Origin: Chlamydiota bacterium
GTDB taxonomy: Bacteria > Auribacterota > Tritonobacteria > UBA1439
Length of the DNA: 64,000 nucleotides
Direction of reading: 5' to 3'
Assembly: GCA_012729785.1 (NCBI GenBank)
Contig: JAAYCL010000044.1
Span: forward strand, 34,752 to 98,751
The notes below the pieces were generated by a model. The model had not been told where the DNA came from, made no database searches, and saw only the letters and a list, made by a program, of their open reading frames with translations. Position 1 is the first letter of the stretch. Each line of letters opens with the position of its first letter. The translations under genes and the position numbers were made by a program. Positions 2,513 to 48,372 of the stretch are shown in pieces.

Positions 2513-2548
2513 GGCACCTGGACGCATTCGCCTATAGCGGAGGAGCAG

Positions 2549-5401
2549 ATGAGTCGCCCGGCCCCCGTCGAACAGAGCCCCGCCCCCGAGAAAGGGTACG
2601 TGACGATACGCCTGGACTGGTTCCGCGTCGTATTCGCCGCGATACTCGCCTTTACCGTCGTGACCCGTTTTTACGGCCTCTCCCTGAAACCGTTTCACCA
2701 CGACGAGAGCCTCTACGCGACCTACTCCTGGTACCTGTTCGAGGGGAGGGGGTACAAGTACGACCCGATGATGCACGGCCCCTTCATGTTCTACCTCGAC
2801 GCCCTCCTCTTCACCCTCTTCGGGGTCGGGGACTTCGTCGCCCGGATGGGCGCGGCGCTCTTCGGTGTGGGGCTCGTCTGGTGCGCCTGGCTGTTCCGAA
2901 AAGAGCTCGGGAAGGCGGGCGCCCTCTCGGCGGCCGCGCTCTTCGCGGTCTCCCCGACGTTCATGTACTTCTCCCGCTTCTTCCGCGAGGATGTCTTCGT
3001 CGCCTTCTGGGCCCTCCTCTCCGTGGGGCTCTTCGTGAATCGACTGCGTGCCGGCTCGAGGGGGTGGCTCTACGGGGCCTCGGCGGCCTTCTCCCTGATG
3101 TTCTGCGTCAAGGAGAACTCGTACATGTTCCTGGCCATCTTCGTTTCGTTCTGGGCTTTCATGCTCCTCTTCGAACGGTGCTTCGGGCGCGCCGCCCTCC
3201 CGGGAACGCCGTGCGCCGCGGGGGGGGGGCGCCGCCTCCTCGGCCTCCTCGACACCGTCGTGGCGCTCGGCATCTTCTTCGCGATCTTCTATCTGTTCTT
3301 CACCTCCTTTTTCCGCAACCCGCCCGGCTTCATCGACGGCCTCTACCGGAAGTCGCTCGGCTACTGGATGCACCAGGACAAGATCCAGCGCATCAAGGGC
3401 CCGTTCACCTACTTCTGCCCGATCGCCGCGACCTACGAGCTCCCCCTGCTGGCCGTCCTCTTCGCCGGCGTCGTCGCCACCCTCAGGCGCCATCGTCTCT
3501 CCCTCGCCGTCATGGCCGGTTCGAGCGCCGTCGCCCTTCCGCTGATGTGCCTCTGGAACCGGCCCCTGCCGGTCGCGTGGGACACGCTGTTCCACATGAC
3601 GAGCACGCTCCACGTCGTCTTCGCCCTCTACGTGTTCGCCCTCGGGATGGCGGCCACCTGCACCTGCCTTCGGGAGGGGAGGCGCTTCGCCGCCTTCGTC
3701 TCCTACTGGAGCTGGACCAGCCTCCTGCTCTACTCGTACGCGGGGGAGAAGGTCCCCTGGCTCCTGATGCACGTGCTGATGCCGATGGTGCTCTGGGCGG
3801 GCGTCTTGTTGGGCGACTTCTTCGCCTCGGAGCGGTTCCGGCGGAACACGAACGCGTACGCGGCGCTCCTCGGGGTCGGGCTCCTCCTCTTCCTGCAGGC
3901 CTCGCTCCGGCTCTGCTTCGTCAACGAGGCCAACCCGGTCGAGTGCATGGTCTACACCCAGACCTCCACGGACATCCAGAAGACGCTGCGGATCATCAAC
4001 GCCCTCGCCGAGGAGACCGGGAAGGGGCTGCAGCTCCCGATCGGCATCCAGGGCGAGTCCACCTGGCCGTACACCTGGTACCTCCGCGACTACAAGGACT
4101 GGTTCCATCCGGGAACCTTCACCGCGCCGAGCAAGATGGTCGTGGCGGTGGACTGGGACAAGCGCCGGGACTTCAGCGCGGTCCTCGAGCCGCACTACCG
4201 GGAGACGCGGATGAAGCTCAGGGAGTGGTGGGTGCCGAGCCCGCTGGGCTCCCTGAAGAGCCCCGGGCCGGGGTGGGCCGAGCGCGTCTTCGGCCGGCGG
4301 CCGTTCTCGGTCTTCATCGCGGACTCCTCCCACCGGCTCCGGGCGCTGCTGCGGTACTACTTCAGCCGGCAGGTCTGGAGCGTCCTCGGCTCGCAGGATA
4401 TCGCCTTCTACGTGCGGCGGGACCTCCTCGGCGAGGCGCCCGGCCCCGTTTCCGCCGCGGAGGCGCCGCAGGCGCCCGCGGTGGCCAAGGAGTATGCGGT
4501 GATCGGGACGACGTCCCCCGACGCCGTCTTCGGTGAGCGGGGAAGCGCCGCGGGCCGCTTCGACGAGCCTCGTGGCATCTGGGCGGACGCAACCGGTGCC
4601 ATCTACGTCGCCGACACCAAGAATCACCGCTGGCAGAAGCTCGACGCGCAGGGGAAGCCCCTCCTCACGGTCGGGAAGCCGGGGAGCGGCCCCGCGGAGT
4701 TCAAGGAGCCGATGGGGATCGCCGTCGACGGCGACGGATTCGTCTACGTCGCCGACACCTGGAATCACCGCATCCAGAAGTTCGACCGGGAGGGGAGATT
4801 CGTCAAGGAGTGGGGCGGCGGCGCGGGCGGCTTCTGGGCTCCGAAAGGCATGGCGTTCGACCGGGAGGGGAACCTGTACGTGGTCGATACGGGGCGGCAC
4901 CGGGTCCAGAAGTTCACGTCCGGCGGCTCCTACCTGCTGCACTGGGGTGACCAGGGGGAGGGGCCGGGAGAGTTCAGGGAACCGGTGGGGATCGTCGTGG
5001 TTTCAGGCGAAGCCGCCGCGGCGGCCGGCGACGATACGAAACAAACGCCCGGGGATGCGGTCCTGGTCGCCGATACCGCCAACAAGCGCGTGCAGAGATT
5101 CGACACGAAGGGGAGGTTCCTCGGGCAGTTCCGCGTCCTCGGGTGGGAGGAGTACTACACCGAGCCGTTCGCCGCGGCGGACTCCGCGGGAAGAATCTGG
5201 CTCACCGACAGCCGGAACAACCGCATCCAGATCTTCAGCCCCGACGGGGTGCTCCAGGCCCTCTGGTCGGCGAAGGGGTTCAAGCCGGGCGACTTCAACG
5301 TCCCGACCGGCATCTTCATCGCCGACGGACGCGTCTACGTCAGCGATACCCACAACCACCGCGTGCAGGTGTTCGCCGAGAAACGGGTCTGCCGGAGGTA
5401 G
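2549..5401 (+). CDS. Polytopic GT-C-type membrane glycosyltransferase (PMT_2/ArnT-like N-terminus) fused to a C-terminal six-bladed NHL-repeat beta-propeller
   Basis: 950 aa. N-terminus has multiple TM helices and an HHDESLYATYSW loop motif. C-terminus has six NHL repeats: VYVADTKNHRWQK, VYVADTWNHRIQKF, LYVVDTGRHRVQKF, VLVADTANKRVQRF, IWLTDSRNNRIQIF, VYVSDTHNHRVQVF. Confidence 0.85.
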   Translation: MSRPAPVEQSPAPEKGYVTIRLDWFRVVFAAILAFTVVTRFYGLSLKPFHHDESLYATYSWYLFEGRGYKYDPMMHGPFMFYLDALLFTLFGVGDFVARMGAALFGVGLVWCAWLFRKELGKAGALSAAALFAVSPTFMYFSRFFREDVFVAFWALLSVGLFVNRLRAGSRGWLYGASAAFSLMFCVKENSYMFLAIFVSFWAFMLLFERCFGRAALPGTPCAAGGGRRLLGLLDTVVALGIFFAIFYLFFTSFFRNPPGFIDGLYRKSLGYWMHQDKIQRIKGPFTYFCPIAATYELPLLAVLFAGVVATLRRHRLSLAVMAGSSAVALPLMCLWNRPLPVAWDTLFHMTSTLHVVFALYVFALGMAATCTCLREGRRFAAFVSYWSWTSLLLYSYAGEKVPWLLMHVLMPMVLWAGVLLGDFFASERFRRNTNAYAALLGVGLLLFLQASLRLCFVNEANPVECMVYTQTSTDIQKTLRIINALAEETGKGLQLPIGIQGESTWPYTWYLRDYKDWFHPGTFTAPSKMVVAVDWDKRRDFSAVLEPHYRETRMKLREWWVPSPLGSLKSPGPGWAERVFGRRPFSVFIADSSHRLRALLRYYFSRQVWSVLGSQDIAFYVRRDLLGEAPGPVSAAEAPQAPAVAKEYAVIGTTSPDAVFGERGSAAGRFDEPRGIWADATGAIYVADTKNHRWQKLDAQGKPLLTVGKPGSGPAEFKEPMGIAVDGDGFVYVADTWNHRIQKFDREGRFVKEWGGGAGGFWAPKGMAFDREGNLYVVDTGRHRVQKFTSGGSYLLHWGDQGEGPGEFREPVGIVVVSGEAAAAAGDDTKQTPGDAVLVADTANKRVQRFDTKGRFLGQFRVLGWEEYYTEPFAAADSAGRIWLTDSRNNRIQIFSPDGVLQALWSAKGFKPGDFNVPTGIFIADGRVYVSDTHNHRVQVFAEKRVCRR

Positions 5402-5475: not shown

Positions 5476-7227
5476 ATGACCGTAGTGCGCACCGTCGTTT
5501 TGGCGCAGCCGCCGCTCCCGGCGAACGAGCGACACAAGCGGGTGCTCCCCCTGGGGCTCGCCTACCTGGCCGCCTACGCCCGCGATCGAATCCCCGGGCT
5601 GCGCGTGCGGATCGTCGACGGCCAGGCGTGCAAGCTCACCGTCCCCCAGATCGCCGAGCAGGTGCGGGCGGAGGATCCTGGGGTTGTCGGCATCACCTAC
5701 TGGACCTGCCAGGCCCCCGCGGCGCACCTCCTCTCCCGGTTGCTCCGCGAGACGGCGCCGGGCGCCGCGATCGTGCACGGGGGGATCCATCCGACCATCT
5801 ATCCCTCCGCGGCGCTCGAGACGGCGGACTACTGCATCATGCACGAGGGAGAGGAGACGTTCGTAGAGCTCCTCCGTCTGCTCGCCGGGGAGGGGCGGGG
5901 GCCTGAGGGGATCGCGGGCCTCGCCTGGAGGGACGGCCGGGAGCCGCGCGTCAACCCGCCGCGGCCGTTCATCGCCGACCTCGACGCGCTCCCGTTCCCC
6001 GCGTGGGATCTCCTGCCGATGGACCGGTACGACTCGCCGCTCCACGTTGTCGGCGGCCGGCGGCTCCCCATCGTCGGTTCCCGAGGCTGCCCCTACGGCT
6101 GCACCTACTGCGGCTCCCCCTTGATGTGGGGCCGCCGCGTCAGGTGGCGCAGCCCGGAAAACATCCTCGCCGAGATGAAGGCCGCGATCGCCGCGCTCGG
6201 CCTCACGCAGTTCCATTTCTGGGACGACAACCTGATGCTCGACCGCCGCCATGTCGAGCGGCTCTGCCGTCTGATCATCGAGGAGCGGCTCGCCGTGCGG
6301 TGGACCGGTCTGACGCGCGCCTCCCATATCGCGCGCAACGGGGATCTGATGGGACTCCTGAAACAGGCAGGGTGCATCGGCCTGGAGGTGGGGATCGAGA
6401 GCGCGAACCCGGAGACGTTCTCGCAGATCGACAAAGACGAGGATTTGCAGGTCATCAGGGAGGTGGCGCACCTCCACAAGGCGCACGGGATGTCCCCCCT
6501 CTTCACCTACATGGCGTGCAACCCGGGGGAGACGATCTCCGGGTATTACGCCCAGGCGCGGTTCATCGACGAGCTTGTCGCGGGGCTCCCGTGGTACGCG
6601 CACTTTCACCCGATGCCCTTCCCGCTCTACACGGGGCAGTTCGCGACCCCCCATATGGGGACGAAGCTCCACGACGAGGCGCCGAAGCTCGGGATGGTGC
6701 TGGCGGAGCGGCTCGAGGAGTACCACCACCATCGGATCAACTTCGTGCCGAACTCGCTCCTCGACGACATACCCGCCCGCAACATCCGGGCGCTCGACCT
6801 GTACCAGTACCGGCTCTGCCGTTACGCCCTCTGGTACTCCTTCTGGGACGACTTCAACGCGGCGGTGCCCCGGGACCGGCAGCGGGAGACGCTGGCGCGG
6901 TACCGGGATTTTCTCTCCTTTTTCTGGAGACTGTGCGACGGCAGGAATACCATCCGCCAAATCGCCGCCGCCGCCGGCCGCAGGGCGGGCGTGGAACCGC
7001 GGCAGGCGGTGCGGTTCGCCGCTTTTACGGCGCTCATCCTCGGGCAGACCGGGGTGATCGTTTCGGCGATCCACGACGCGGGGAGGAGACGGCCGGTGGT
7101 TGCGGTGGCGACGCCGGCCCAGGTCGAGGGCTGCCTCACGCCGGCCGGGGGCGAGATGCCGCCCCCGTCCGCCGCGCGCCGGGTCGCCGACGAGGCCGTA
7201 CGGCTCCTGCGGCGGTTTCTCGGATAG
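5476..7227 (+). CDS. Cobalamin-binding (class B) radical SAM protein
   Basis: 583 aa from ATG 5476. Has a B12-binding-like N-terminus (VVLAQPPLPANERHKRVLPLGLAYLAAY) and a radical SAM CxxxCxxC motif (GSRGCPYGCTYCGSP). Confidence 0.85.
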   Translation: MTVVRTVVLAQPPLPANERHKRVLPLGLAYLAAYARDRIPGLRVRIVDGQACKLTVPQIAEQVRAEDPGVVGITYWTCQAPAAHLLSRLLRETAPGAAIVHGGIHPTIYPSAALETADYCIMHEGEETFVELLRLLAGEGRGPEGIAGLAWRDGREPRVNPPRPFIADLDALPFPAWDLLPMDRYDSPLHVVGGRRLPIVGSRGCPYGCTYCGSPLMWGRRVRWRSPENILAEMKAAIAALGLTQFHFWDDNLMLDRRHVERLCRLIIEERLAVRWTGLTRASHIARNGDLMGLLKQAGCIGLEVGIESANPETFSQIDKDEDLQVIREVAHLHKAHGMSPLFTYMACNPGETISGYYAQARFIDELVAGLPWYAHFHPMPFPLYTGQFATPHMGTKLHDEAPKLGMVLAERLEEYHHHRINFVPNSLLDDIPARNIRALDLYQYRLCRYALWYSFWDDFNAAVPRDRQRETLARYRDFLSFFWRLCDGRNTIRQIAAAAGRRAGVEPRQAVRFAAFTALILGQTGVIVSAIHDAGRRRPVVAVATPAQVEGCLTPAGGEMPPPSAARRVADEAVRLLRRFLG

Positions 7228-8347: not shown

Positions 8348-9208
8348 ATGTGCGTGAGGGCGCTCTCGCGGCTGAAGTCCCTGTGCACCGTGCACCGGGA
8401 ACTGCTCTTCCACCTGGCGTTGAAGAACCTGAAGGTGCAGTACAAGTACGCCTTCCTCGGATTCCTCTGGGCGTTCTTCGTGCCGCTCTGCATGGCGCTG
8501 GTCTTCTGGTTCCTCTTCGCCTTCCTCTGGCAGCGGCCGATACCGCCCCTCTCCATCGTGACGGCCCTCTTCGTCTGGCAGTTCGTCAATATGAGCATCG
8601 CGAGCTCCACGACCTCCATCATCGACAACGCGGGCCTGCTCAAGAAGGTCTACATCCCGCGGGAGATCGTCCCCCTTTCGATCGTGCTGTCGAACTTCAT
8701 CAACTTCCTCCTGTCGCTCGTGGTGCTGGTCGTGCTGGTCCTGATCTACACCACCTTCAAGGCGGGTCACCCGATCCTCCCCGTACAGATCCTTTTGCTC
8801 CCCCCGCTGGTCGTGGTGACGTTCCTGATGACGTCGGGGTTCGTGCTGATCACCTCGTCCCTCCAGGTGCTCTACCGGGACGTGAAGTACATCGTGGAGA
8901 TCGCCCTCCTGATCATCTTCTATCTTTCCGGCGCCTTCTACGAGGTGGACCTGATCGCCGCCGGCGCCGCCAGGAAAGGGATTCCGTGGCTCGTGCACCT
9001 GTTCATGTTGAACCCGATCTACGACCTGTTCGCGATGTACCGGATCGTCCTTCTTCCCTCCGCCATCTCGGAGATGACGGTGGACATCTCGCGGTACTAC
9101 CCGGTCTGGCTTGTGGTCTCCCAGACCGTCGTGTTCAGCGTTCTCCTCTTCGTCGCCGCCTACCGGATGTTTCTGCGGAGGGAAGTCGACCTGGTCGACC
9201 TGATTTGA
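8348..9208 (+). CDS. wzm: ABC-2 type polysaccharide export permease (Wzm/TagG-like)
   Basis: 286 aa with 6 predicted TM helices. LKNLKVQYKYAFLGFLWAFFVPL is the ABC-2 permease signature. The RBS is AAGGGGGAATG. Confidence 0.85.
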   Translation: MCVRALSRLKSLCTVHRELLFHLALKNLKVQYKYAFLGFLWAFFVPLCMALVFWFLFAFLWQRPIPPLSIVTALFVWQFVNMSIASSTTSIIDNAGLLKKVYIPREIVPLSIVLSNFINFLLSLVVLVVLVLIYTTFKAGHPILPVQILLLPPLVVVTFLMTSGFVLITSSLQVLYRDVKYIVEIALLIIFYLSGAFYEVDLIAAGAARKGIPWLVHLFMLNPIYDLFAMYRIVLLPSAISEMTVDISRYYPVWLVVSQTVVFSVLLFVAAYRMFLRREVDLVDLI

Positions 9209-9212
9209 CCCC

Positions 9213-11513
9213 ATGAGCCACAGTATTGAAGTCAAGAATCTCCGGAAGAAGTACCGGGTCTACTTCGAGAAGCCGGCGCTCATCCGCAACATCCTCCCGT
9301 TCCTCGTCTCCCAGGGGAAGGCGCAGGAGTTTTGGGCGCTGGACGGCGTATCCTTCTCGATGCAGAAGGGGGAGTGCGTGGGGATCATCGGCCCCAACGG
9401 CTCGGGGAAGAGCACCATCCTGAGCATCCTCGCGGGGGTCTCCGCGCCCACGGAGGGCGAGGTCTCGATCAGCGGGAGGGTTTCCTCGCTCCTCTCGCTG
9501 GGAGCCGGGTTCAACTTCGAGCTCACCGGGCAGGAGAACGTCTACCTGAACGGCGCCATCCTCGGCCTCTCGAAAACGCAGATCGACGCCATCTACGACG
9601 ACATCGTGGCGTACGCCGACCTCGGGAGGTTCATGAACGCCAAGCTCTCGACCTACTCCTCGGGGATGAACATGCGCCTGGGCTTCGCCATCGCCGTGAT
9701 GGTGCCGTTCGACGTCCTCTTGATGGACGAGATCCTCGCCGTCGGCGACCTCTCCTTCCAGACGAAATGCTTCCGGACGATGCGGAAGTTCTGGGAGGAC
9801 GAGGGAAAGACGGTCATCTTCGTCTCTCACGACCTCGTCAAGATCGAGGAGATCTGCTCGAGCGTCCTCTGGTTCGAGCACGGCAAAATCGAGGCGATGG
9901 GCGCGCCGGAGGAGGTCATCGAGGCGTACCGGGAGCGCTACCGTGAGAAGCTCGCGCTCGGCCCCGCGGTGAAGCGGCAGGCGCGCGCCGAGGTCCCGGT
10001 GCTCGTGACCGTGGACGCCGCGAGGGAGCTCCGGCGGATCCCGGAGACGATCTTCGGAAGCAACGTCGACATCTTCAGCGACGGGTGCATCGTGTATGAC
10101 GGGAAGCGGCGGCAGGCAAACCGGATGGCCCACGCATGGATCGCGCCGCTCGGTTTCACATTGTTCAGATACCCCGGGATGTTCCATGCGGACTATTTTC
10201 ACTGGCGTGAGGCGGTCGGCGAGGAGCGCCTCCCGCAGGTGTGCGGCACCTCCTCCTCGAAATCCACGCTGCCGCCCACCTTCGGCCCCGCGGAGTTCCT
10301 CGATATGTGCACCACGCTCGCCGCGGCGCCGATGGTCACGCTGAACGCGGGGACGGGCACAGCGGAGGAGGCGGCGGCATGGGTCTCGTGGATCCGGGAG
10401 CGTTACCGGGGGCCGCTCCACCTCGAAATCGGGCACGAGCTCTACTACGACGAGTTCCATCCCCTCGGGGCCGACTTCCCCTGGACTCCCGCTCGCTACG
10501 CGGGAGCCGTGGAGGAGTTCTCGCGCGCCGTGCGGGCAGTGGACGGCGAGGCGAGGATCGGCGCGCAGTGCTGCATCGAGAACGGGGCGTTCACGCGTTA
10601 CCGCGACCCCCGCTGGAACGAGGCGCTCCTCGCGCTCCCACCAGGAACGTTCGATTTCCTCTCTCTGCACCACGCCTCCCTCCCCATCCTGAACATCACC
10701 GGAGACTACCGCACCCCCGCCGACGCCGAGACCTACGGTACGCTTCTCGCAGCCCCGGCCTTCGTCGAGGCGAGCCTGGCGGCGCTGGCGGCGCAGGCGG
10801 CGCGCGCGGGCCGGGCCGGCATCCCCATCGCCCTGAGCGAGTACGGCTGCTTCTTCACGAGCGTGCCGAACATCGTCCACGGGACCCACGCGGTGCACGA
10901 CCGCTGCTCCGACTCGGTGGAGTGGGGGAGGAACCACACGCTCGCCGCCGCCCTATACGAGGCAGGCGTCCTCCACGCCTGCCTCAGGCGGCCGGAGGTG
11001 CAGATCGCGGCGCGCATGACCCTCTTCCATACGCTCTTCTCCAGTGTGGCGGACTTGCGTCGCCAAGCCCGCCACCCGCAGTACCTCGTGCACGAACTTC
11101 TCGACAGATTCGCGGGCAAGACGCTGGTCCCCTCGCGGGTGGAGACGAAGCGGATCGCGACCCCGGCGCTGGGCTTCGTGCCGGCGCTGCGCGATCTCCC
11201 GATCTGCGAGGCGGTGGCGGTGAAGGATGCCGGAGGGGGAAAGATCGCCCTCTCCCTGATCAACCGCAGCCTGGACAGTCCCATCAGCGTCCGGCTCGAC
11301 CTGAACGGCTTCGCGGCGCGCTTCTGCACCGTCAGGACCGTCTCCGCCGAGAGCCCGGAGTGCGACCACACCCTCCCCGGCCCCGGCCAGGTGGCGATGG
11401 GGCAGCAGACCTATCGCACGGAGGGGATGCGGGGAGGGGACGGGTTGCTGCGCTATCTCCTTCCGCGGCACTCGCTGAGCGTGATCTCCTTTTCCGACGA
11501 GGACTGGATCTGA
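9213..11513 (+). CDS. wzt: ABC transporter ATP-binding protein (Wzt/TagH-like NBD) fused to a ~500-aa glycoside-hydrolase-like (clan GH-A TIM-barrel-like) C-terminal domain
   Basis: Walker A GPNGSGKST, signature LSTYSSGMNMRL and Walker B LLMDEILAVGD lie in the first ~250 aa. The C-terminus contains LEIGHELYYDE and IALSEYGCFF, reminiscent of GH-A acid/base and nucleophile glutamates. Confidence 0.85.
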   Translation: MSHSIEVKNLRKKYRVYFEKPALIRNILPFLVSQGKAQEFWALDGVSFSMQKGECVGIIGPNGSGKSTILSILAGVSAPTEGEVSISGRVSSLLSLGAGFNFELTGQENVYLNGAILGLSKTQIDAIYDDIVAYADLGRFMNAKLSTYSSGMNMRLGFAIAVMVPFDVLLMDEILAVGDLSFQTKCFRTMRKFWEDEGKTVIFVSHDLVKIEEICSSVLWFEHGKIEAMGAPEEVIEAYRERYREKLALGPAVKRQARAEVPVLVTVDAARELRRIPETIFGSNVDIFSDGCIVYDGKRRQANRMAHAWIAPLGFTLFRYPGMFHADYFHWREAVGEERLPQVCGTSSSKSTLPPTFGPAEFLDMCTTLAAAPMVTLNAGTGTAEEAAAWVSWIRERYRGPLHLEIGHELYYDEFHPLGADFPWTPARYAGAVEEFSRAVRAVDGEARIGAQCCIENGAFTRYRDPRWNEALLALPPGTFDFLSLHHASLPILNITGDYRTPADAETYGTLLAAPAFVEASLAALAAQAARAGRAGIPIALSEYGCFFTSVPNIVHGTHAVHDRCSDSVEWGRNHTLAAALYEAGVLHACLRRPEVQIAARMTLFHTLFSSVADLRRQARHPQYLVHELLDRFAGKTLVPSRVETKRIATPALGFVPALRDLPICEAVAVKDAGGGKIALSLINRSLDSPISVRLDLNGFAARFCTVRTVSAESPECDHTLPGPGQVAMGQQTYRTEGMRGGDGLLRYLLPRHSLSVISFSDEDWI

Positions 11514-11547: not shown

Positions 11548-12765
11548 ATGGACCATCGCGACGAACATCGGCTCGCAGGGATAACCGGCGGGTCCCGCGC
11601 CCTCTGCGGGCCCGAACAGATCCATCTCGATCTCACCAACGCGTGCACACTGCGCTGCCTCTGCTGCTGGCACCGCTCGCCGCTCCTTGCCGCAGGGGAT
11701 ATTCCCCCCCACTGGTCGCCGGACCACCGTCTCTCGTACGAGACGGCCCTCGGCGTCATCGAGGACGCGGCGGCGATGGGGGTTCGGCGGATCATATTCA
11801 GCGGCGGGGGCGACCCCCTCTGCCACCCCCGCACGATGGACCTGCTCCGGGCCGCGGCGGAGAGGGGGCTGGAGACCACCCTCATCACCAACCTCGTTGT
11901 CGCCGGGGCGGAGACGATCCGAACGCTTGTCGAGGCGCGCCTCGGCAGGCTGGCGGTGAGTCTGTGGGCCGGCGACGAAAAGACGTACGCCGTGATGCAT
12001 CCGGGCGCGTCTTTCGGGACCTTCGGGAGGATCGTGGGGCTGCTCCGGGGCCTCGGGGCCCCCCTCCCTCCGGGACGCGGGCCGCAGCTCATCCTGACGC
12101 ACGTGCTGTGCGCGCGCAACGCCGGGAATATCGAGGCGATGGTGCGCCTTGCCGTGGAGCTCGGCGCGGGCCAGATCTGGTTCCAGCCGACGGATGTGGA
12201 GACGCCGCGTCTGAAGCCGCTCCTGCTGGGCCGGGCGGAGATCGCGGCCGTCGTCGCGTCGCTCGAAAACTGCGCCGCACGGTTCCGCCCCCTCCTGCGG
12301 CCCGGGCAGGAGGGGCTTCTCGACTTCAGCCTGCTCCTCGGAAAGCTTTCCAACAGCAGGGCCCACGAAGGGGTCTTCCACTCCGACGTGATCGACACGA
12401 TGCCCTGCTACATGGGTTGGTACGAGAGCCGGATACTCGCCAACGGCGACGTGGTTCCGTGCTGCAAGGCGGACCGTCTTCCGCTCGGTTCTGTGCGCGA
12501 GCGGCGCTTCCGCGACATATGGTTCTCGCCTGCGTACGACGAGTTCCGGAGGCGGGCGCTGACCCTCTCCAAGTCGGACCCGTACTTCGCGAAGATCCGG
12601 TGCGGGAAGTTCTGCGACGACTGGTGGCTGAATGCCATCGTCCACCGGTCGTACCTCGGCAGCCGCGCGCGGCCCGGCGGGAGGGACCGGCGCGGGCCGG
12701 CCAAACGGATCCTCTCCGCGTTTCTCAAACTGGCGGGTCGGCGGGGCGGGGAGGGGGGGGCGTGA
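11548..12765 (+). CDS. Radical SAM / SPASM-domain protein
   Basis: 405 aa with CxxxCxxC (LTNACTLRCLCC). The C-terminal Cys cluster (CYMGW...VVPCC...KIRCGKFC) is SPASM-like. Confidence 0.85.
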   Translation: MDHRDEHRLAGITGGSRALCGPEQIHLDLTNACTLRCLCCWHRSPLLAAGDIPPHWSPDHRLSYETALGVIEDAAAMGVRRIIFSGGGDPLCHPRTMDLLRAAAERGLETTLITNLVVAGAETIRTLVEARLGRLAVSLWAGDEKTYAVMHPGASFGTFGRIVGLLRGLGAPLPPGRGPQLILTHVLCARNAGNIEAMVRLAVELGAGQIWFQPTDVETPRLKPLLLGRAEIAAVVASLENCAARFRPLLRPGQEGLLDFSLLLGKLSNSRAHEGVFHSDVIDTMPCYMGWYESRILANGDVVPCCKADRLPLGSVRERRFRDIWFSPAYDEFRRRALTLSKSDPYFAKIRCGKFCDDWWLNAIVHRSYLGSRARPGGRDRRGPAKRILSAFLKLAGRRGGEGGA

Positions 12766-17307: not shown

Positions 17308-17438
17308 TCCCTCGGGTGTGCGCTCACCCGCCTTGCGGGAGGGGCCTGTCGGGAGGCTACACCGGGAGCGCGTGCATCGCTGCATCGCTGGTGGTATACT
17401 CGCGCGGATCAGGACCGCCCCATCGGGAGAAGGCATCC

Positions 17439-19517
17439 GTGAACCGCCTGAGCATCTATCTCCTTTTCCTTGTCCTCGGCTTCGTCGCGGCGTTGGCCGT
17501 GCGGATCTCCTTCACCGACGACCTGTCGGGGATGGACCTCTCCTGCGGCAACTACGACGGGATGGAGTACCACTGGCTCGCCAAGAATCTTTGCCGGGGC
17601 AGGGGCCTGCGCACCTTCTCGGAGGGCGGGTTCGACTATCGACTGCTCCGCCCCCCGGGCTACCCGCTCTTCATCGCCGCGGTGTACTGCATCTCGGGGA
17701 TGCAATTCCTCCACCTCAGGATCGCGGACGCCGTGCTCTCCGCCCTCAGCGCCGTTCTGGCCGCGCTCATCGCGCGCGAGCTCGCAGGGAGGAAGGCCGC
17801 CTGCATCGCCCTTCTCCTCGCGGCGCTCTACCGCCCGGCGGCCTTCTTCGCCACGCGCATCTTCTCGGAGAACCTCTTTTGCTTCCTGATGCTGCTCTCC
17901 CTCCTGCTCCTGATCCGCCGCGGGAACAGGCCGTGGGCATGCCTCATCGCGGGGGCGCTGTCGGGCGGGCTTGTGTTGACGAGGCCGGTGTGGCTCGGGG
18001 TGTTCCCATTCGTTCTCGCGTGGGTCGCCGCGGCGCGGGGCCGGCGGATCGTGCGGTCGGCGTGCCTCCTGCTCGGCCTTGCGGCGGCGACGGCGCCGTG
18101 GGCGGCCTACTGCCGCCTGACGCTCGGCATGCCGGTTTCCCCTGTCATCTTCTCGTCGTTGCGGGGCCTGTACAACACCTGGCTGGCCTACAACCCCGAG
18201 GCGGGCGATTTCACGCAGCGAGGGCCCGAGGAGGGGCGGGAACTGGAGCACGAGTGGGCGCAGTTGATGGCCCTTCGATTCAGGTATTGGCGGATGCCGG
18301 AGGCGGAGTACCTGGCGGCCGTCTCCGCGGAGACGTCGCGTTTCTTCCGGGCGGATCCGCGGCGGTGCCTCTCGCTCGGCGTGAAGAGGGTGTACCGCGC
18401 GTGGCTCGGTTCCGGCCTGCTTGACGGCCAGGGCACCGTCCTCCCCGACACGGGTGAGAATCCGTACGGGATCATATACTGGAAGAGACGGATCTTCGAT
18501 CCGGCCGTGTACCTCGGCGACACGGAGATCATCGAGCAGCTCCCGTTCAGCAGGGAACTCCGCATCCTCGGCGTCCGCGTCCCGCTGCTCTCCTTCGAAG
18601 GGGCATTCTACCTCATGGCCCTCGCCCTCCTCGCCTGCGCGGCGCTCAATGCGCGGCATCTCGCGGGGAAGACAGGAGAGGCGGTGCGAAGGTATTCCCT
18701 CTTCGTGCTGGTTGCCGCGGGGTACACGGCCGCCAACACGATCTCCGTCACCATGCAGCGATTTCGCTTCCCGCTGGAATACCTTATGATCGTCGTCGCC
18801 GGGGCGGGGATCGCCTGCGCGCTCTCGCCGCTCTTCCGCTTTGTATGCGCGGGGCTTCGAACCCTCGGATTCCGGATCGCCGGCGAGCCGGAAGGCCCCC
18901 CCCGTCGGTTGGCGTGTCGAGTCGCGCCGAACGCAGCCCTGCTCGCCGGGGCGGCCGTCGCGGCGGCGCTCGCCGCGAGGTGCTCGTGGAATCTTCACGG
19001 TTTCCGCGAGGCGGTGAGGGCGCAGTGCGCCGTGCGCGTTTCGGATGCCGACATCGAGGCCCGGATGGGTCGGGGCGCGCGGGAGGGGGGAGGCGGGCCG
19101 GGGTACAGGGAGGTCTGGAAGCGGCAGGTGGAGGGCGCCGGAAACCTCGGCGGGATATTGGGAAAGGAGATCCTATGGCGGGGCGAGGCCACGTGGATTA
19201 ACCCCCCCTCCCGGGCCGATTTCCAGGGCGAATACTACCTCCGTTCGGCGCAGGCGAGGTTCGTGTCGGAGATGGAGAACCCCGGCTTCTTCATGCTGAT
19301 CGTGGATTCCTACCGCGACCCAGACTCCATCGGCTCGGGAAGGGCGGTCGTCGTTGCGCCCGGTGGAACGGTCGAACGGCTTGCGGAGGGGGACCACATA
19401 GCCGTGCTCGGCAGGCTCGGGGGCACCGATTTTGTCGAGGGATCGATCATCGTATGCGCCGAGGAGATTCTTGTTTTGAGCGGAGGGCGCGCGCCACTCG
19501 GAGGGGAGCGCGGGTAG
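17439..19517 (+). CDS. GT-C membrane glycosyltransferase, PMT_2 (GT39/GT83-like) family
   Basis: GTG 17439 follows GGGAGAAGG. YDGMEYHWLAKNLCRGRGLRTF...PPGYPLFIAAVY is the first-loop DE/YH motif, with multiple TM helices. The C-terminal ~200 aa are soluble. Confidence 0.75.
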   Translation: MNRLSIYLLFLVLGFVAALAVRISFTDDLSGMDLSCGNYDGMEYHWLAKNLCRGRGLRTFSEGGFDYRLLRPPGYPLFIAAVYCISGMQFLHLRIADAVLSALSAVLAALIARELAGRKAACIALLLAALYRPAAFFATRIFSENLFCFLMLLSLLLLIRRGNRPWACLIAGALSGGLVLTRPVWLGVFPFVLAWVAAARGRRIVRSACLLLGLAAATAPWAAYCRLTLGMPVSPVIFSSLRGLYNTWLAYNPEAGDFTQRGPEEGRELEHEWAQLMALRFRYWRMPEAEYLAAVSAETSRFFRADPRRCLSLGVKRVYRAWLGSGLLDGQGTVLPDTGENPYGIIYWKRRIFDPAVYLGDTEIIEQLPFSRELRILGVRVPLLSFEGAFYLMALALLACAALNARHLAGKTGEAVRRYSLFVLVAAGYTAANTISVTMQRFRFPLEYLMIVVAGAGIACALSPLFRFVCAGLRTLGFRIAGEPEGPPRRLACRVAPNAALLAGAAVAAALAARCSWNLHGFREAVRAQCAVRVSDADIEARMGRGAREGGGGPGYREVWKRQVEGAGNLGGILGKEILWRGEATWINPPSRADFQGEYYLRSAQARFVSEMENPGFFMLIVDSYRDPDSIGSGRAVVVAPGGTVERLAEGDHIAVLGRLGGTDFVEGSIIVCAEEILVLSGGRAPLGGERG

Positions 19518-19518: not shown

Positions 19519-21687
19519 ATGAACACGACAGCGAGAAGACACGCATGCCTCCTCCTCCTCCTCGTTCTGGTGGTGCTGTGCCATGCCCTCTGCAATTGGC
19601 GCTACCTCGCCGGCGATCTCTATCCCCAGCAGAAGGACGTTGCGGCGCACCTCAAGGTGTGCACGAAGTATCTCCTCCAGTCGAGGGACGCGATCCGCAG
19701 CGGCGCACCCCTGCTGGAGCGCTTCACGAGACTCGCCTCGCTCTTCCACCAGGAGAGCATACCGGTGGAGCACATATGGATTTGGCCCCGTCTTACCTAC
19801 GTGGTGACCGCGCCAGCTGCGGCCATCTGGGGTCTGACGCCGCGGGTGATCATCCTCTCGAACATCGTCTGGCTTGCGGTACTGCTCCTGTCGGTTTTCT
19901 CCATCGGATCGCGGTGCATGAGCCCCGAAGCGGGATTCATGGCGGCGCTCATCACCTCGTTGTTTCCCGCGACCTACGGCCTCTCAAGGAATTACGGTCT
20001 CGACTTCTCCCTGATGGGGATTGCCGCGCTCGCCGTCTACTGGCTTATCAGGACGGAGGCCTTTTCCCGGAGGGCTCCGTCGATCGTCTTCGGTTGCGTG
20101 TTCGGCATCGGGCTTCTGGTGAAGGTGCAGCTTCTCATCTTCCTCTGCGGCCCGCTCCTCTTCGCGCTCGTGTGCGGGTGGCGTCGGTCGCGCGATCGGG
20201 GGATCACCGCCGGGAGGGTGTTCGCGAACGTCGCGCTCGCGGGTCTCGCCGCGCTGCTTCTCTCGATTCCATTCTGGTGGGGAAACATCGACAACATCGC
20301 GGCGGTGTTCATCCGGCACGCCGAGGCGCGCGACGGCATCGACCCGCACCACCTCTCCGTGCCCGTGATGAGCGCCCGATACTTCGCATACTACCTCGTG
20401 GCGGCGATCGTCTACGTTTCGCCGCCGCTGTTCGCGCTCGGGGTTCTGCTCCTCCCGGTGTTCATCCTCTCCCGCTTCAAGGCGAGGGCGGTCGTACTCC
20501 TCTGGGCTCTTGTGCCGTACGCGATGTTCACCCTCATCGAGTTGAAGTACTCCGTATTCTATCTGTCGAGCCTCCCCGCGGTCGGCGTGGTCATCGGTGC
20601 GGGGCTCGCGTCCCTCAGGACGAGGGCGCTGAAGTACTTTCTGTGTGCCGCCGCCGCTGGGTGGGGCCTCATCCACTTTCTGCAACTCTCGTTCGCCGTT
20701 GGCCCTCCGCCATACAGAGGTTGCAGGCCGTATTCGAGCGATGCTTTGCGTGCGGACGGCTACCCCGTTTGGGCGCACCCGGCCTTCCCCAACAACCTGG
20801 AGAGGGTCGCGCGGAGGTTTATCGAAGAGATCGGCTCCCACGAACGAGGGAACAGGTATGTGCGGATCGGCGTCTGCGAATTCGAGTATTCGAACAAGGA
20901 TTACCTGCTCGTCGACTCGCTCGAATACTTCATGGAGTCGGTGAATCCCGCTGTCTATGTGTTCCGGAGCCACTTTTCAACCGACTCGTTCCTGGAGTGC
21001 ATGGACAGTTTCAACTACCTCGTTGTCCTGGAGGAGGGAGACAAGCCTATGCCGGACTTCCGGCGGTTTGAGGAGTACTTCAGCAACGGCAGCGGCGCCT
21101 CTCTCTGCGCGAAGTATCTGAATGGTCCCGCGACCCTCGCGCGACTCATCGAGAGCTACCGAAGGTACGAACTCCTCGACCGCGAGCTATTGTACCCTGA
21201 CGGCGTCAGCGCGTTCCTGATGCGAAAGCCCCCCTTCCCCGTGGAGGACGACGCCGTCATCCCCGCCGCGCATCTGGTGAGCGCCAACGTCTTCATCGCC
21301 TGGCCCCGGATCGGCGTGGACGAACGGCTGCGGCGCCCTCCGACGATCGGCGACTACGACGTCCTCTTCCCGTACGACCTCGAGTTCCCGCTCGTGCCGC
21401 CCGCCCGCCGGGACCCGTCCGAGCCCTACTTCGCCCGGTACCGCCTCTCCTTTGAGCGGGGAGGGACGTACGCGCTTTCCATCAAACTCAAGGATCGGGA
21501 GGCGTCGCCTCCTCGTGCCTCCGTGAACGGGAAGCCCGTCATCGGACGCCATCCGCGGGAAGCGAACGGCGGGATGAAGCGCATCGGATCGTTCCGCGTT
21601 CAGGCGGGGGTGGGCGAGGTGGAGCTCCTCGGGGACGAGTATTTTTCCGTCACAGAGCAGCTTCGAATCACGAGGGAGGGGGAGTAG
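19519..21687 (+). CDS. Polytopic membrane protein with large C-terminal soluble domain (GT-C-like)
   Basis: 722 aa. The ATG overlaps the previous stop (TAGTATG). About 11 TM helices in the first 400 aa. Confidence 0.7.
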   Translation: MNTTARRHACLLLLLVLVVLCHALCNWRYLAGDLYPQQKDVAAHLKVCTKYLLQSRDAIRSGAPLLERFTRLASLFHQESIPVEHIWIWPRLTYVVTAPAAAIWGLTPRVIILSNIVWLAVLLLSVFSIGSRCMSPEAGFMAALITSLFPATYGLSRNYGLDFSLMGIAALAVYWLIRTEAFSRRAPSIVFGCVFGIGLLVKVQLLIFLCGPLLFALVCGWRRSRDRGITAGRVFANVALAGLAALLLSIPFWWGNIDNIAAVFIRHAEARDGIDPHHLSVPVMSARYFAYYLVAAIVYVSPPLFALGVLLLPVFILSRFKARAVVLLWALVPYAMFTLIELKYSVFYLSSLPAVGVVIGAGLASLRTRALKYFLCAAAAGWGLIHFLQLSFAVGPPPYRGCRPYSSDALRADGYPVWAHPAFPNNLERVARRFIEEIGSHERGNRYVRIGVCEFEYSNKDYLLVDSLEYFMESVNPAVYVFRSHFSTDSFLECMDSFNYLVVLEEGDKPMPDFRRFEEYFSNGSGASLCAKYLNGPATLARLIESYRRYELLDRELLYPDGVSAFLMRKPPFPVEDDAVIPAAHLVSANVFIAWPRIGVDERLRRPPTIGDYDVLFPYDLEFPLVPPARRDPSEPYFARYRLSFERGGTYALSIKLKDREASPPRASVNGKPVIGRHPREANGGMKRIGSFRVQAGVGEVELLGDEYFSVTEQLRITREGE

Positions 21688-23413: not shown

Positions 23414-23465
23414 CACAGCCGGTGCTACATTAAGGGCCGGGTCAATGGCTGCGGTTGCGGCCCGA

Positions 23466-23474
23466 TGGTATACT
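23466..23474 (+). promoter_or_regulatory. Candidate extended -10 (TGgTATACT) giving a leaderless or short-leader transcript of the ARH-family gene
   Basis: The -10 ends 6 nt before ATG 23481. Confidence 0.3.
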
Positions 23475-23480
23475 GTTCGC

Positions 23481-25682
23481 ATGAGACGGTCCACGCGTGT
23501 GCTCTGCCTCCTCCTGTTCGTCGGGGGTTTTCTCGCCGCGCCCCCTCCCACCGGATGCGCCGGCGCGAAAACGTTCTCCATCTCCAGGTCCGACTATCTC
23601 GAGAAGGTGCACGGCTGGTGGATGGGGAAGCTGATCGGCGTGACGCTCGGGGGGCCGTTCGAGTTCCGCATGCCCTGGCCGCCGAAGGAGGTCACGGGCT
23701 ACGTCTTCGACGCCCCCGTAGCCGATTACTTCGGCGACAACGACGACCTGTACGTCGGCATGGCGTACCTGCTCGCCCTCGATCGGCACGGGGCCGGGGT
23801 GACGCAGGTACAGATGGCAGCCGAGTTTTTCCGCCGTCTGGAGCCGCGACGCCTCTGGATGGCGAATCAGCGCGCGTATATGAACCTCGCCGCCGGGCTC
23901 GCCCCTCCGAAGACCGGCCACCCGGTTTTCAACGAATGCTCCTGGGCAATCGACGCGCAGATAGAAAACGACGTCTGGGGCGTCGTCTGTCCCGGGATGA
24001 TCGACACCGCCTGCCGTTATGCCGACCTCGCCGCGCATGTCACCAACCACGCCGACGGGGCGTACGGCGGTCTCTTCACGGCGGCACTGGCGAGCGGCGC
24101 CTTCGCGGAACGCGATGTCGAAACGCTCGTCGAAACGGCGCTCGCGAAACTGCCCCCCTCCTGCGACTACGCGGAGGCCGTGCGGGACGTCATCGCATGG
24201 CATCGGGAGGAACCCGGCGACTGGAAGAAGACGCGGGAGCGGATCCGGAGTAAGTGGCAGGTGGAGAGGGGGCACAGGGACGAGTCGGCGGTGGTCAACG
24301 GCGCGGCCGTCGTGACGGCGCTGCTCTATGGCGGCGGTGATTTCGATACAACCGTCAGGATAGGGACAATGGCGGGGTGGGATACCGATTGCAACGCGGC
24401 GTCGGCGGGGGGGATCCTCGGGATCATCCTCGGTGCCAAAGGGATCCCGCCACAATGGAACATCTTCCACGACCGCTACAAGAATATCTCGCTTCGAAAC
24501 CTCCCGATGTGGATGACGATCACGGGGCTCGCCGAGTGGACCGCCGCGCTCGGGGAGAGGACGATTGCCGCGCACGGCGGGCGGCTCGACGGCGACCGCC
24601 TCGTGATCCCGCGGAGGAAGCCGGCCACCCCGTGTGCGGCGGGGACGTCCGTGCCCGGCGGTCCGCGCCGGGATGAGGAGTGGAATCCCCTCCGCGTCGA
24701 GAAGCTCGCGCTCGACCTTCGGCTCTGGAATCCCGATCTGGATCTTTGGAACTGCATCGCCGACGGGACGACGGGTCTGAGCCGGGAGTTCAAGGGGAAA
24801 CGGCACGTCTTCAGGACGGTCCCGGGCCCGACGCAGGGGCCGTGCGTGCTGATCTTTCCGGACGTCGCCCCTCCAGATGGGCGAGAGGAGATTTTGCTGG
24901 AGATCTCCGCGTGCAGCGGCGACGCCCCCTGGGACCTCTCCGTGGCGGCGGGGGAGAGGGAATTGGGGCGCGTCAGAGTGGGGAAGGAAGCCCCGGCGGG
25001 GTTTCGGGCGACCACGATTGTGCCGCGCCGCGGCGAGGATATCATCCTGTACCCGGCGGAGGACGGCTCCACCTACCTCGACCAGAAGCTCACCCGCCTC
25101 GCCCAGCCGTCGCCGTCATTCAACCCGGCGGCGAAACCCGTCCCGCTCCGCATCCGCTCCGCGCAGAACAATGTGAACCTCTTCAGATATGGCGGGAAGT
25201 GCCCTCCGGGCAAGCCCGAGATACGCGCGTACTACATCCTCACGGAGTGGACGGACAGCCCCTATCCCGTCGCCTGGCTCTCCCCCGGCGACCCACATCC
25301 GTACGGCTGCTACTGGCCGAAGGAACACGTCCCCGACCTCCCCCTCCAGGAGCCCAAGCAGATCAAGTTGAGGATACAGGCCGAAGAGGAACTTCCCGCC
25401 ATACCCGAGGGGGGAAAGTTCGTCCTCGTGCACGATGAGGGCAACGCGACGGTGATCTCGCTTCCGCGGGTATCCACGAAGCCGACGCCGTGGCACCGGC
25501 TGCGCTTCGATCTCACGCCGTACCTGGCGTTGCGGCCGCGGGTCGAGGTCCGGAGCACGCCGGCCGTCGGGGAAGGGAGGGGGGAGGCGTTCTGGGAGTA
25601 CGTCAGGATTGTCAGGAGGCCCGTCTCCACCGTGGACGGCGGCGCAAACGGTCAAACCCCTTCCGACCGCCGGCAGAGGTAG
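23481..25682 (+). CDS. ADP-ribosylglycohydrolase-family protein (secreted/lipoprotein) with ~350-aa C-terminal extension
   Basis: Signal peptide with possible lipobox (LLFVGGFLAAPPPTGC). The ARH signature GWDTDCNAASAGGILG and a GDNDDLY acidic cluster are present. Confidence 0.75.
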   Translation: MRRSTRVLCLLLFVGGFLAAPPPTGCAGAKTFSISRSDYLEKVHGWWMGKLIGVTLGGPFEFRMPWPPKEVTGYVFDAPVADYFGDNDDLYVGMAYLLALDRHGAGVTQVQMAAEFFRRLEPRRLWMANQRAYMNLAAGLAPPKTGHPVFNECSWAIDAQIENDVWGVVCPGMIDTACRYADLAAHVTNHADGAYGGLFTAALASGAFAERDVETLVETALAKLPPSCDYAEAVRDVIAWHREEPGDWKKTRERIRSKWQVERGHRDESAVVNGAAVVTALLYGGGDFDTTVRIGTMAGWDTDCNAASAGGILGIILGAKGIPPQWNIFHDRYKNISLRNLPMWMTITGLAEWTAALGERTIAAHGGRLDGDRLVIPRRKPATPCAAGTSVPGGPRRDEEWNPLRVEKLALDLRLWNPDLDLWNCIADGTTGLSREFKGKRHVFRTVPGPTQGPCVLIFPDVAPPDGREEILLEISACSGDAPWDLSVAAGERELGRVRVGKEAPAGFRATTIVPRRGEDIILYPAEDGSTYLDQKLTRLAQPSPSFNPAAKPVPLRIRSAQNNVNLFRYGGKCPPGKPEIRAYYILTEWTDSPYPVAWLSPGDPHPYGCYWPKEHVPDLPLQEPKQIKLRIQAEEELPAIPEGGKFVLVHDEGNATVISLPRVSTKPTPWHRLRFDLTPYLALRPRVEVRSTPAVGEGRGEAFWEYVRIVRRPVSTVDGGANGQTPSDRRQR

Positions 25683-28186: not shown

Positions 28187-28248
28187 GGAGAGTGCCTTCG
28201 CGACGTCGTTGGACAGCCATGGTATCCGCTTCGAACGCAATCCGCAAG

Positions 28249-28276: not shown

Positions 28277-28305
28277 GTCGACGCATCCCCATCGATGGGA
28301 ACTGC

Positions 28306-48358: not shown

Positions 48359-48372
48359 CGCGGAAGGCGGAT

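Follow-up and report, generated by a model that had tools for sequence, protein, structure and literature searches.

The 950 amino acid protein encoded at positions 2549–5401 (+) of the 64-kb window, the whole stretch of DNA analyzed here, combines a GT-C-fold membrane domain of the TIGR03663/Agl23 family with a C-terminal NHL beta-propeller. It is probably a glycosyltransferase that uses a polyprenyl-phosphate-sugar donor to modify an extracytoplasmic acceptor and carries the propeller as a tethered, non-catalytic module. Since its architecture is common within the family and already present in public databases, we regard the protein as an unremarkable representative of a little-studied family.

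Intact GT-C/NHL fusions are common and widely distributed

The coding sequence is complete and consists of one unbroken ATG-to-stop open reading frame. A Shine-Dalgarno-like GGAGGAG can be read from the sequence at positions 2539–2545 (+), upstream of the ATG at 2549. Third-position GC content is 0.93, a value typical for real genes in the window, and codon bias is even along the whole reading frame. A 100% identical 950 amino acid protein (P0001) is found at NCBI, where it is automatically annotated as a TIGR03663 family protein. In addition, 17 collinear orthologues with 58–82% identity and 98–100% query coverage were identified in independent NCBI, ENA, JGI and Logan assemblies.

To investigate how common the fusion is, we searched with the membrane domain only. 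The resulting profile detects 2521 clusters (50% identity) at E ≤ 1e-30, and a C-terminal NHL domain is present on 60 of the best 150 family representatives (ca. 40%) from the membrane-domain-only search. A scan of species-representative genomes yielded 581 or more related loci. Among the best 80 of these, the majority match the query nearly end to end, in at least six phyla. Full-length GT-C/NHL fusions were found in Chloroflexota, Acidobacteriota, Binatia, Myxococcales and Omnitrophota. The description of the fusion as a rare architecture in the initial annotation therefore does not hold. An apparent 2553 amino acid giant fusion in locus L034 was discarded as a probably over-extended reading frame, its N-terminal ca. 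1,700 residues having no Pfam match. Literature searches returned nothing on the combination of GT-C and NHL domains and nothing relevant on TIGR03663 or DUF2298.

An artefactual fusion could arise from a frameshift, from a chimeric assembly or from the misreading of two genes as a single one. We found no point in support of such an origin, and its probability is negligible. Orthologue comparison, codon bias and the AF2 model revealed no frameshift or assembly join between the GT-C and NHL halves, one of the outcomes that the initial annotation had named as fatal to its own reading. The identical protein and the full-length collinear orthologues come from independent assemblies and pipelines, the same architecture recurs in most of the best 80 species-representative loci, codon bias is uniform and AF2 models all three domains confidently. 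The artefact reading is thus already refuted. The domain limits originally proposed, ca. 640 residues followed by ca. 310, proved accurate.

The membrane domain is predicted to adopt a GT-C fold with conserved residues on its outer face

The polytopic membrane domain spans amino acids 24–459 (2618–3925, +) and comprises 13 transmembrane helices arranged in a GT-C fold, as assigned by DSSP on the AF2 model. The protein matches the NCBIfam model TIGR03663 ("Agl23") with 333.4 bits vs. a cut-off of 126.25, covering profile positions 3–431 of 435 and extending to amino acid 516 of the protein, while Pfam PMT_2 matches at amino acids 76–211 with 54.1 bits vs. a cut-off of 26.1. Pfam PMT (PF02366) does not match the 950 amino acid protein, MIR and TPR domains are absent, and none of the ArnT-specific NCBIfam models is reached.

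The full-length AF2 model has a mean pLDDT of 88.4 and a pTM of 0.72. As full-length Foldseek searches were swamped by NHL matches, a second model of amino acids 1–640 was built (pTM 0.84). With this model, every match with a probability of at least 0.99 is a GT-C enzyme, the best being ArnT (E = 3.5e-7) and the others STT3, Pmt4, PglB, ALG9, AftD and Emb. For MurJ and MATE structures, all matches had E > 0.5 and probabilities of at most 0.1, and the MOP-superfamily flippase fold (MurJ, Wzx, Rft1; MOP/MATE-like) was rejected in this comparison. Whole-protein sequence searches against the PDB returned NHL domains only, and a membrane-domain profile was needed to reach ArnT (5ezm, E = 1.4e-4). 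The initial annotation as a PMT_2/ArnT-like GT-C membrane glycosyltransferase is supported by the PMT_2 score and the modeled fold. Its GT-C call was correct but missed the specific family, TIGR03663, which is named after the archaeal Agl23. The domain search and AlphaFold model that it had proposed were both carried out and support the GT-C as well as the NHL assignment.

ArnT of Cupriavidus metallidurans (GT83, PDB 5ezm/5f15) represents the best structural and profile match. The two proteins have in common a GT-C fold, a pair of acidic residues in periplasmic loop 1 and, at the C-terminus, an alpha/beta domain in the periplasm. In contrast, identity is only ca. 15% with TM-scores of 0.43–0.49, and ArnT modifies lipid A and lacks a propeller. 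The published ArnT structure possesses 13 transmembrane helices in an N-in topology. For the window protein, helix count, loop Lys and Arg counts and GT-C homology lead us to deduce an N-in, C-out topology with 13 helices. This topology would place the propeller outside the cytoplasm, which upholds the periplasmic location first suggested for it.

The HHDESLY loop motif noted in the initial annotation is present at amino acids 50–56 (2696–2716, +) in the first outward loop, where D52-E53 represents a putative catalytic acidic pair. Among 254 aligned family members, D52 and E53 are conserved without exception and H51 is conserved in 248. In the family-profile alignment, HHDE lies opposite the PDE of ArnT (GPDEGRY). 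H76 is likewise near-invariant (253/254) and G77 invariant (254/254), so that the conserved residues of loop 1 comprise H50-H51-D52-E53-S54 and H76-G77-P78. Other conserved positions are R99 (251/255), R143 (255/255) with D148, K188, E400/K401 and, in the long loop 4, Y272-W273-Q276-R281, with W273 found in 252 and R281 in 251 of 254 members. In the 13-helix model, all of these residues are placed in outward-facing loops or at the outer ends of helices. The TIGR03663 family description specifies an invariant DE dipeptide, an HGP tripeptide and two arginines. D52, E53, H76, G77, P78, R99 and R143 are all present in the window protein, invariant or nearly so. The membrane domain is followed by an extracytoplasmic alpha/beta domain at amino acids 460–630 (3926–4438, +), delimited by secondary structure in the AF2 model. 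This domain is family-wide, being found in fused and unfused members alike, and contains the invariant residues W506, P507, W510 and W560.

A six-bladed NHL propeller is attached through a non-conserved linker

A linker at amino acids 631–655 (4439–4513, +) connects the alpha/beta domain to the propeller. It has low pLDDT (<50 at amino acids 635–641) and shows 0–14% identity to distant fused homologues. The six-bladed NHL beta-propeller follows at amino acids 656–945 (4514–5383, +). Pfam NHL matches with E = 7.7e-45 (149.2 bits vs. a cut-off of 20) in five scored stretches, and the NHL motif proposed in the initial annotation occurs in six copies at amino acids 686–698, 733–745, 777–789, 839–851, 884–896 and 930–942. 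The strands of the AF2 model form six groups, and Foldseek comparison of the modeled propeller with solved six-bladed NHL structures gives target-normalized TM-scores of 0.85–0.89. The six repeats originally read from the sequence are thus confirmed. Searching the PDB with phmmer identified the NHL domain of Thin (6d69, E = 5.9e-52), with TRIM71 and PknD also matched. The scytonemin-associated NHL PEP-CTERM protein ScyF was considered and rejected, its model reaching 182.4 bits vs. an NCBIfam equivalog cut-off of 350 and matching NHL blades only.

The propeller itself could be an enzyme of the lyase, lactonase or amidating-lyase type, which would make the protein bifunctional. Weak overlapping Pfam matches to SGL (44.8 bits), Vgb_lyase (22.7 vs. 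a cut-off of 50) and Phytase-like domains, together with PDB sequence matches to the PAL domain of peptidylglycine alpha-amidating monooxygenase (E ca. 1e-9 to 1e-8), point in this direction. However, these matches span one or two blades only and fall within the same beta-propeller superfamily, whereas those to the non-catalytic propellers of Thin, TRIM71 and PknD are much stronger. In a comparison of 108 distant fused homologues, the conserved positions proved to be those of the canonical structural repeat together with a few tryptophans specific to individual blades, and no pattern of conserved His or Asp residues typical of a metal site was apparent. We consider a catalytic propeller very improbable. 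The same structural repeat motif mostly explains why NHL identity exceeds that of the transmembrane domain in distant homologues, and a conserved ligand was consequently not deduced from this difference.

In one complete unfused relative, whose transmembrane domain is 56% identical, no NHL gene lies nearby. This relative, the non-conserved low-pLDDT linker and the mainly structural nature of the conserved NHL positions suggest that the propeller is an accessory tethered module. An acceptor- or protein-binding role, as put forward in the initial annotation, is plausible. The PknD sensor of Mycobacterium tuberculosis (PDB 1rwi, E = 4.9e-22) also carries an extracellular six-bladed NHL propeller tethered to a membrane-anchored enzyme, although there it is joined to a Ser/Thr kinase via a single transmembrane helix. 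In PMT/TMTC protein O-mannosyltransferases, MIR or TPR repeats on the lumenal or extracytoplasmic side are attached to a GT-C core and engage the acceptor. Pmt4 and Pmt1/2 are among the structural matches to the window protein, which differs in having an NHL propeller on a flexible linker in place of MIR or TPR repeats. AftD/Emb arabinosyltransferases possess large extracytoplasmic C-terminal binding modules and act on exported polysaccharide. Their GT-C core is also found among the Foldseek matches, but the fold match is much weaker (E ca. 5e-3 or worse) and the modules are CBM-type beta-sandwiches.

The gene is part of a Wzm/Wzt glycan island

The window contains a Wzm/Wzt glycan island that encodes GT2 and GT4 glycosyltransferases, methyltransferases, radical SAM enzymes and three further PMT_2 proteins, and is partly syntenic in relatives at 58–77% identity. 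No tRNA genes were found in the window. Divergently transcribed from the fusion gene is a 258 amino acid GT2 (1554–2330, −; Pfam Glycos_transf_2) whose best NCBIfam matches are AglJ, PpgS and a dolichyl-phosphate hexose transferase, all below their cut-offs. Being most similar to polyprenyl-phosphate-sugar synthases, it is a candidate for the maker of the lipid-linked donor. Downstream lies a B12-binding radical SAM enzyme (5476–7227, +) that is syntenic in close relatives. Its start was placed by aligning it to the orthologue in L001, with which it shares 80% identity. An ABC exporter for a glycan is formed by the Wzm permease (8348–9208, +) and a Wzt ATPase with a C-terminal beta-sandwich extension (9213–11513, +), and this pair is syntenic in locus L001. 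Distant fused homologues are found in non-glycan neighborhoods, which suggests that the Wzm/Wzt link may be clade-specific.

A DUF2298 (TIGR03662) gene is located within 6 kb in 33 of 86 related loci, indicating a frequent association rather than a strict requirement, and tblastn identified no homologue in the 64-kb window. In several related loci, a neighboring membrane protein of 1600–1800 amino acids also ends in an NHL propeller. Unbiased clustering of flanking reading frames across the 86 loci was confounded by spurious long reading frames in high-GC DNA.

A transferase function is favored over a flippase function

In the proposed transferase mechanism, a polyprenyl-phosphate-linked sugar, probably made by the divergent 258 amino acid GT2, would serve as donor, comparable to the ArnT donor, a lipid-phosphate-sugar made by the neighboring GT2 ArnC. 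D52 and E53 would act like the loop 1 acidic residues of ArnT and PMT as the sugar is moved from the lipid donor to an extracytoplasmic acceptor. The enzyme may work with the three other GT-C enzymes on the Wzm/Wzt-exported glycan, or on an envelope protein. The tethered propeller would have a non-catalytic binding or scaffolding function, keeping either the acceptor or a partner protein close to the active site. Close relatives lack the propeller. Counting against the transferase reading, the neighboring GT2 scores far below the polyprenyl-phosphate-sugar synthase equivalog cut-offs, and the non-glycan neighborhoods of distant fused homologues also speak against it.

Alternatively, the protein could primarily be a flippase or scramblase for polyprenyl-phosphate- or diphosphate-linked sugars, as proposed for the archaeal Agl23. 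It would then supply outer-leaflet donors to the three GT-C enzymes encoded alongside it in the island, with the NHL propeller docking it to them. TIGR03663 carries the NCBIfam name 'flippase activity-associated protein Agl23', and no GtrA-type flippase was matched among those window reading frames that were scanned against Pfam. Experimental work within the family is confined to Agl23 of Haloarcula hispanica, which has been put forward as a putative hexose-phosphate-dolichol flippase; the purified protein flips M5GN2-PP-Dol or -Phy in proteoliposomes and Agl23 rescues yeast rft1-delta (PMC11182771). The window protein resembles Agl23 through their shared NCBIfam family, a likeness drawn through the model score (333 bits vs. 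126), and Agl23, too, spans the membrane several times and acts on polyprenyl-phosphate-linked sugars as part of a pathway for surface glycans (PMC11182771). However, Agl23 is an archaeal protein regarded as a putative flippase, and transferase activity has not been reported for it, while the window protein comes from a bacterium and ends in an NHL propeller. The GT-C fold of the latter is unlike that of known lipid-linked-sugar flippases, and the residues conserved in the family are located on the outer side and correspond to those of a GT-C active site. Neither this conservation nor the outward alpha/beta and NHL domains are obviously needed for scrambling. The build-up of lipid-linked hexose in a mutant would be equally expected if a consuming transferase were lost. 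Judged by residue conservation, the outward invariant or nearly invariant residues fit a polyprenyl-phosphate-sugar transferase better than the flippase label derived from archaeal Agl23. A primarily flippase function is thus unlikely, though the two activities are not mutually exclusive.

Implications for the TIGR03663 family

The invariant active site of GT-C type, located on the outer face, and the NHL domain on ca. 40% of the best 150 representatives point to a transferase with a tethered binding module, in a large family whose sole experimental label is "flippase-associated". We tentatively raise the possibility that TIGR03663 proteins are GT-C transferases, not flippases, and that the NHL-tailed form is the core of a widespread extracytoplasmic glycosylation machine in Chloroflexota, Acidobacteriota, Binatia and PVC-related bacteria, with a DUF2298 membrane protein as its frequent partner. 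If so, the propellers would capture a conserved envelope protein or glycan acceptor, or join the two membrane enzymes. This family-level picture leads to a concrete mutational and biochemical test of flippase versus transferase function, in which the NHL domain would provide a handle for acceptor pull-down.

The fusion gene and its orthologues

The 950-aa ORF at window position 2549-5401 (+) runs unbroken from ATG to stop, is preceded by GGAGGAG at 2539-2545, as read from the sequence, and has a third-position GC of 0.93, typical of real genes in this stretch (window GC 66%). A 100% identical 950-aa protein, auto-annotated as "TIGR03663 family protein", is already deposited at NCBI. The protein belongs to a kind that is known but has been little characterised, and our literature search turned up no paper describing the form fused to NHL. 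Independent NCBI, ENA, JGI and Logan assemblies contain seventeen collinear orthologues (58-82% identity at 98-100% query coverage), those with a named source being Candidatus Aureabacteria MAGs and one MAG labelled Chlamydiota, and more distant full-length GT-C and NHL fusions are present in many phyla. No sign of a frameshift or assembly join between the two halves was detected in the comparison of orthologues and independent assemblies, and the fusion is genuine. Domain searches with Pfam recovered both PMT_2 and NHL, and the domains and coordinates in the initial annotation proved correct far beyond chance by Pfam, motif and PDB-sequence matches. Its observation is confirmed and its interpretation partly supported.

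The membrane domain adopts a GT-C fold with conserved residues predicted to face outward

Pfam PMT_2 matches at aa 76-211 with 54.1 bits (cut-off 26.1) and the NCBIfam family TIGR03663, "flippase activity-associated protein Agl23", with 333.4 bits (cut-off 126.25). AF2 models were obtained for the full protein (48 homologues, mean pLDDT 88.4, pTM 0.72) and for aa 1-640 alone (pTM 0.84). Using the second model in Foldseek, all matches at probability >=0.99 are GT-C glycosyltransferases without exception, the best being ArnT at 3.5e-7 and others including STT3/OST, Pmt4, PglB, ALG9, Pmt1-2, AftD, Emb, AftA and AftB. A MOP-flippase fold was not found in this search, MurJ and MATE transporters appearing just at E>0.5 and probability <=0.1. 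The protein passes tests for both the GT-C fold and TIGR03663 membership, and the GT-C assignment first made from sequence stands.

The predicted layout, derived from helices, hydropathy and loop charges, consists of a cytoplasmic segment comprising the first 23 residues and thirteen TM helices (24-41, 95-116, 121-141, 147-168, 171-185, 191-212, 233-251, 298-312, 316-335, 353-375, 379-397, 403-426 and 434-458). Two short helices lie in outward loop 1 (aa 42-94), while outward loop 4 is a long one, spanning aa 252-297. The K+R content is 23% (14/62 residues) in cytoplasmic loops versus 11% (14/131) in outward loops. Helix layout and loop charges place the residues past aa 459 outside the cytoplasm, namely an alpha/beta domain common to the whole family (aa 460-630), a low-pLDDT linker with 0-14% identity to distant homologues (aa 631-655) and the six-bladed NHL propeller (aa 656-945). 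This predicted topology, which also draws on homology to ArnT, agrees with the periplasmic propeller initially proposed.

A profile of 31 N-terminal domains matches the ArnT sequence (5ezm) at E=1.4e-4 and aligns HHDE of the HHDESLY motif (aa 50-56) with P-D-E of ArnT periplasmic loop 1. Across ~254 diverse family members, D52, E53 and G77 are each conserved in 254/254 and H76 in 253/254, together with R143 (255/255), R99 (251/255), W273 (252/254), R281 (251/254) and, in the alpha/beta domain, W506 (248/253), P507 (248/252) and W510 (251/253); position 148 is D or E in 255/255. These near-invariant residues sit in outward loops, at outer helix ends or in the outward alpha/beta domain, as expected of a GT-C active site on the non-cytoplasmic side.

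The C-terminal domain is a six-bladed NHL propeller

The Pfam NHL match (E=7.7e-45), six copies of the NHL motif noted initially (aa 686-698, 733-745, 777-789, 839-851, 884-896 and 930-942) and target-normalised TM-scores of 0.85-0.89 for the modelled propeller on solved NHL propellers all agree with six blades, and the protein passed our test for this fold. Among PDB sequences, phmmer finds the NHL domains of Thin (5.9e-52), TRIM71, TRIM2/3 and Brat, as well as M. tuberculosis PknD through its extracellular sensor domain (4.9e-22). PknD sets a bacterial precedent for an NHL propeller held outside the cell on a membrane enzyme. The protein falls short of the NCBIfam model for ScyF (182 bits, cut-off 350). 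Blade 4 carries a low-complexity insert, SGEAAAAAGDDTKQTPGDA (aa 818-836, window 5000-5056, pLDDT ~56), missing from the family consensus.

NHL-fused GT-C proteins are a standard form of the family

When a profile restricted to the membrane domain, containing no NHL sequence, was run against 1.84 billion cluster representatives, it matched 2521 proteins at E<=1e-30. Of the 150 best representatives, 60 carry the propeller according to a local NHL HMM; 61 of the 150 are >=800 aa, and 59 of those have it. In a one-genome-per-species scan, at least 581 related loci were found and most of the best 80 cover the query from residue ~20 to ~945, in Binatia, Acidobacteriota (Thermoanaerobaculia), Myxococcales, Omnitrophota, FCPU426, Chloroflexota (Anaerolineae, Roseiflexus, Chloroflexus, Caldilinea, Dehalococcoidia) and others. 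The fusion is therefore a standard form of the family, and the rarity initially ascribed to it does not hold. The NHL domain is not obligatory, as judged from the sequence of P0020, a related protein encoded by a complete 611-aa gene, with a TM domain 56% identical and neither an NHL domain nor an NHL gene nearby. On a rough NJ tree of 254 members at least 34 changes of NHL state are counted, a figure inflated by truncated proteins and tree error, versus ~85 with shuffled states. Against distant fused homologues the NHL domain (window 4514-5383) is 44-50% identical and the TM domain (2618-3925) 31-41%, and the closest TM-domain relatives beyond the window's own clade are unfused. This pattern could stem from constraint on the repeat motif, or from exchange or loss of domains in the family.

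For distant fused homologues, the neighbourhood is either unrelated or places the gene beside DUF2298/TIGR03662; a DUF2298 homologue is found within 6 kb in 33/86 loci and is absent from the 64-kb window. In many distant loci the adjoining gene encodes a very large protein also ending in an NHL propeller (L003 11039-18724, L025 2005-6981, L034 1630-6840, L036 926-5884; downstream ORFs in L044, L050, L051 and L084). The neighbour in CSSED10-310 (L003) is called as a 1776-aa PMT_2, DUF2298 and NHL protein, and an adjoining ~1640-aa ORF in Thermoanaerobaculia likewise ends in an NHL propeller.

The fusion gene lies in an apparent glycan-biosynthesis island

The whole window (1-64000) appears to be one glycan-biosynthesis island. 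Upstream and divergent are a GT4 (336-1529) and a 258-aa GT2 (1554-2330); in NCBIfam this GT2 comes closest to polyprenyl-phosphate-sugar synthases, namely AglJ, PpgS and dolichyl-P-hexose transferase, with every score below its cut-off. On the downstream side, a gene for a B12-binding radical SAM enzyme (5476-7227) is followed by those for a SAM methyltransferase, Wzm (8348-9208), Wzt (9213-11513) and a radical SAM/SPASM enzyme. A related locus, L001 (77% identical), shares the gene order that leads from the fusion through B12 radical SAM, Wzm and Wzt to radical SAM/SPASM, and alignment to the L001 orthologue set the start of the B12 enzyme. Looser synteny is seen in L006 and L007, where B12 radical SAM enzymes occur with GT2s and further PMT_2 genes. 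The ~500 aa C-terminal extension of Wzt, conserved in L001, weakly matches an Alpha-L-AF_C-like beta-sandwich and, by analogy with some O-antigen Wzt proteins, may recognize glycan termini.

The window encodes four PMT_2 GT-C proteins (2549-5401, about 13.9k-15547, 17316-19517 and 19519-21687), four GT2s of ~250 aa (1554-2330, 48265-49104, 61696-62466 and 62987-63754) and two larger GT2s (28306-29331 and 30805-32046). Radical SAM genes are unusually dense, with at least eight (5476-7227, 11548-12765, 25652-26746, 26771-29257, 39082-40143, 52545-53633, 55064-56161 and 56124-57566) including three B12-binding and three SPASM-type, which suggests sugars heavily tailored by radical SAM chemistry, for example methylation or epimerisation. 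Mid-island (23445-25682) lies a gene for a 745-aa protein in which an ADP-ribosylglycohydrolase domain is recognised (1.2e-43). In close relatives, other PMT_2 GT-C proteins belonging to the same island end in different modules, Golvesin_C or PA14 (L001 2344-5010; L006 1-2243), and joining binding modules to GT-C enzymes thus looks like a general habit among these organisms.

The protein probably functions as an outward-facing transferase

The reading with the best support, which we consider probable, is that of a GT-C transferase facing outward. Its sugar would come from a polyprenyl-phosphate carrier, which the neighbouring GT2 probably charges, and would be passed to a glycan that is exported or to a protein of the envelope. 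D52/E53 in loop 1 would form the catalytic and acceptor-activating pair, and the propeller, held on a flexible tether, would serve for binding or scaffolding. The analysis shows the fold, the motifs, the gene context and the reasoning on topology; donor, acceptor and the propeller's role are inferred. Together with the GT2, the protein would presumably resemble ArnC/ArnT or GtrB/GtrC-type pairs. GT-C enzymes with appended acceptor-binding modules include PMT with MIR, TMTC with TPR and AftD/Emb with CBMs; the 950-aa protein similarly combines a GT-C core with an appended module, here an NHL propeller.

The main alternative, a flippase like Agl23, seems unlikely to us. H. hispanica Agl23, described as a putative hexose-P-dolichol flippase, rescues yeast rft1-delta and, when purified, flips M5GN2-PP-Dol in liposomes (PMC11182771). 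In the 950-aa protein, the GT-C fold, together with invariant residues on the outer face and domains outside the cytoplasm, argues for selection on catalysis beyond scrambling; transferase and flippase activities could also coexist in one protein. It is very improbable that the NHL domain is itself catalytic, as its similarities to SGL, Vgb_lyase and PAL are partial and weak and the positions conserved in 108 distant homologues correspond to the structural repeat motif and a small number of residues specific to individual blades, among them W738 and W866. Overall, the most useful outcome is an argument at the level of the family, in that "Agl23-like" proteins look like transferases, along with the recurring association of TIGR03663, DUF2298 and NHL.
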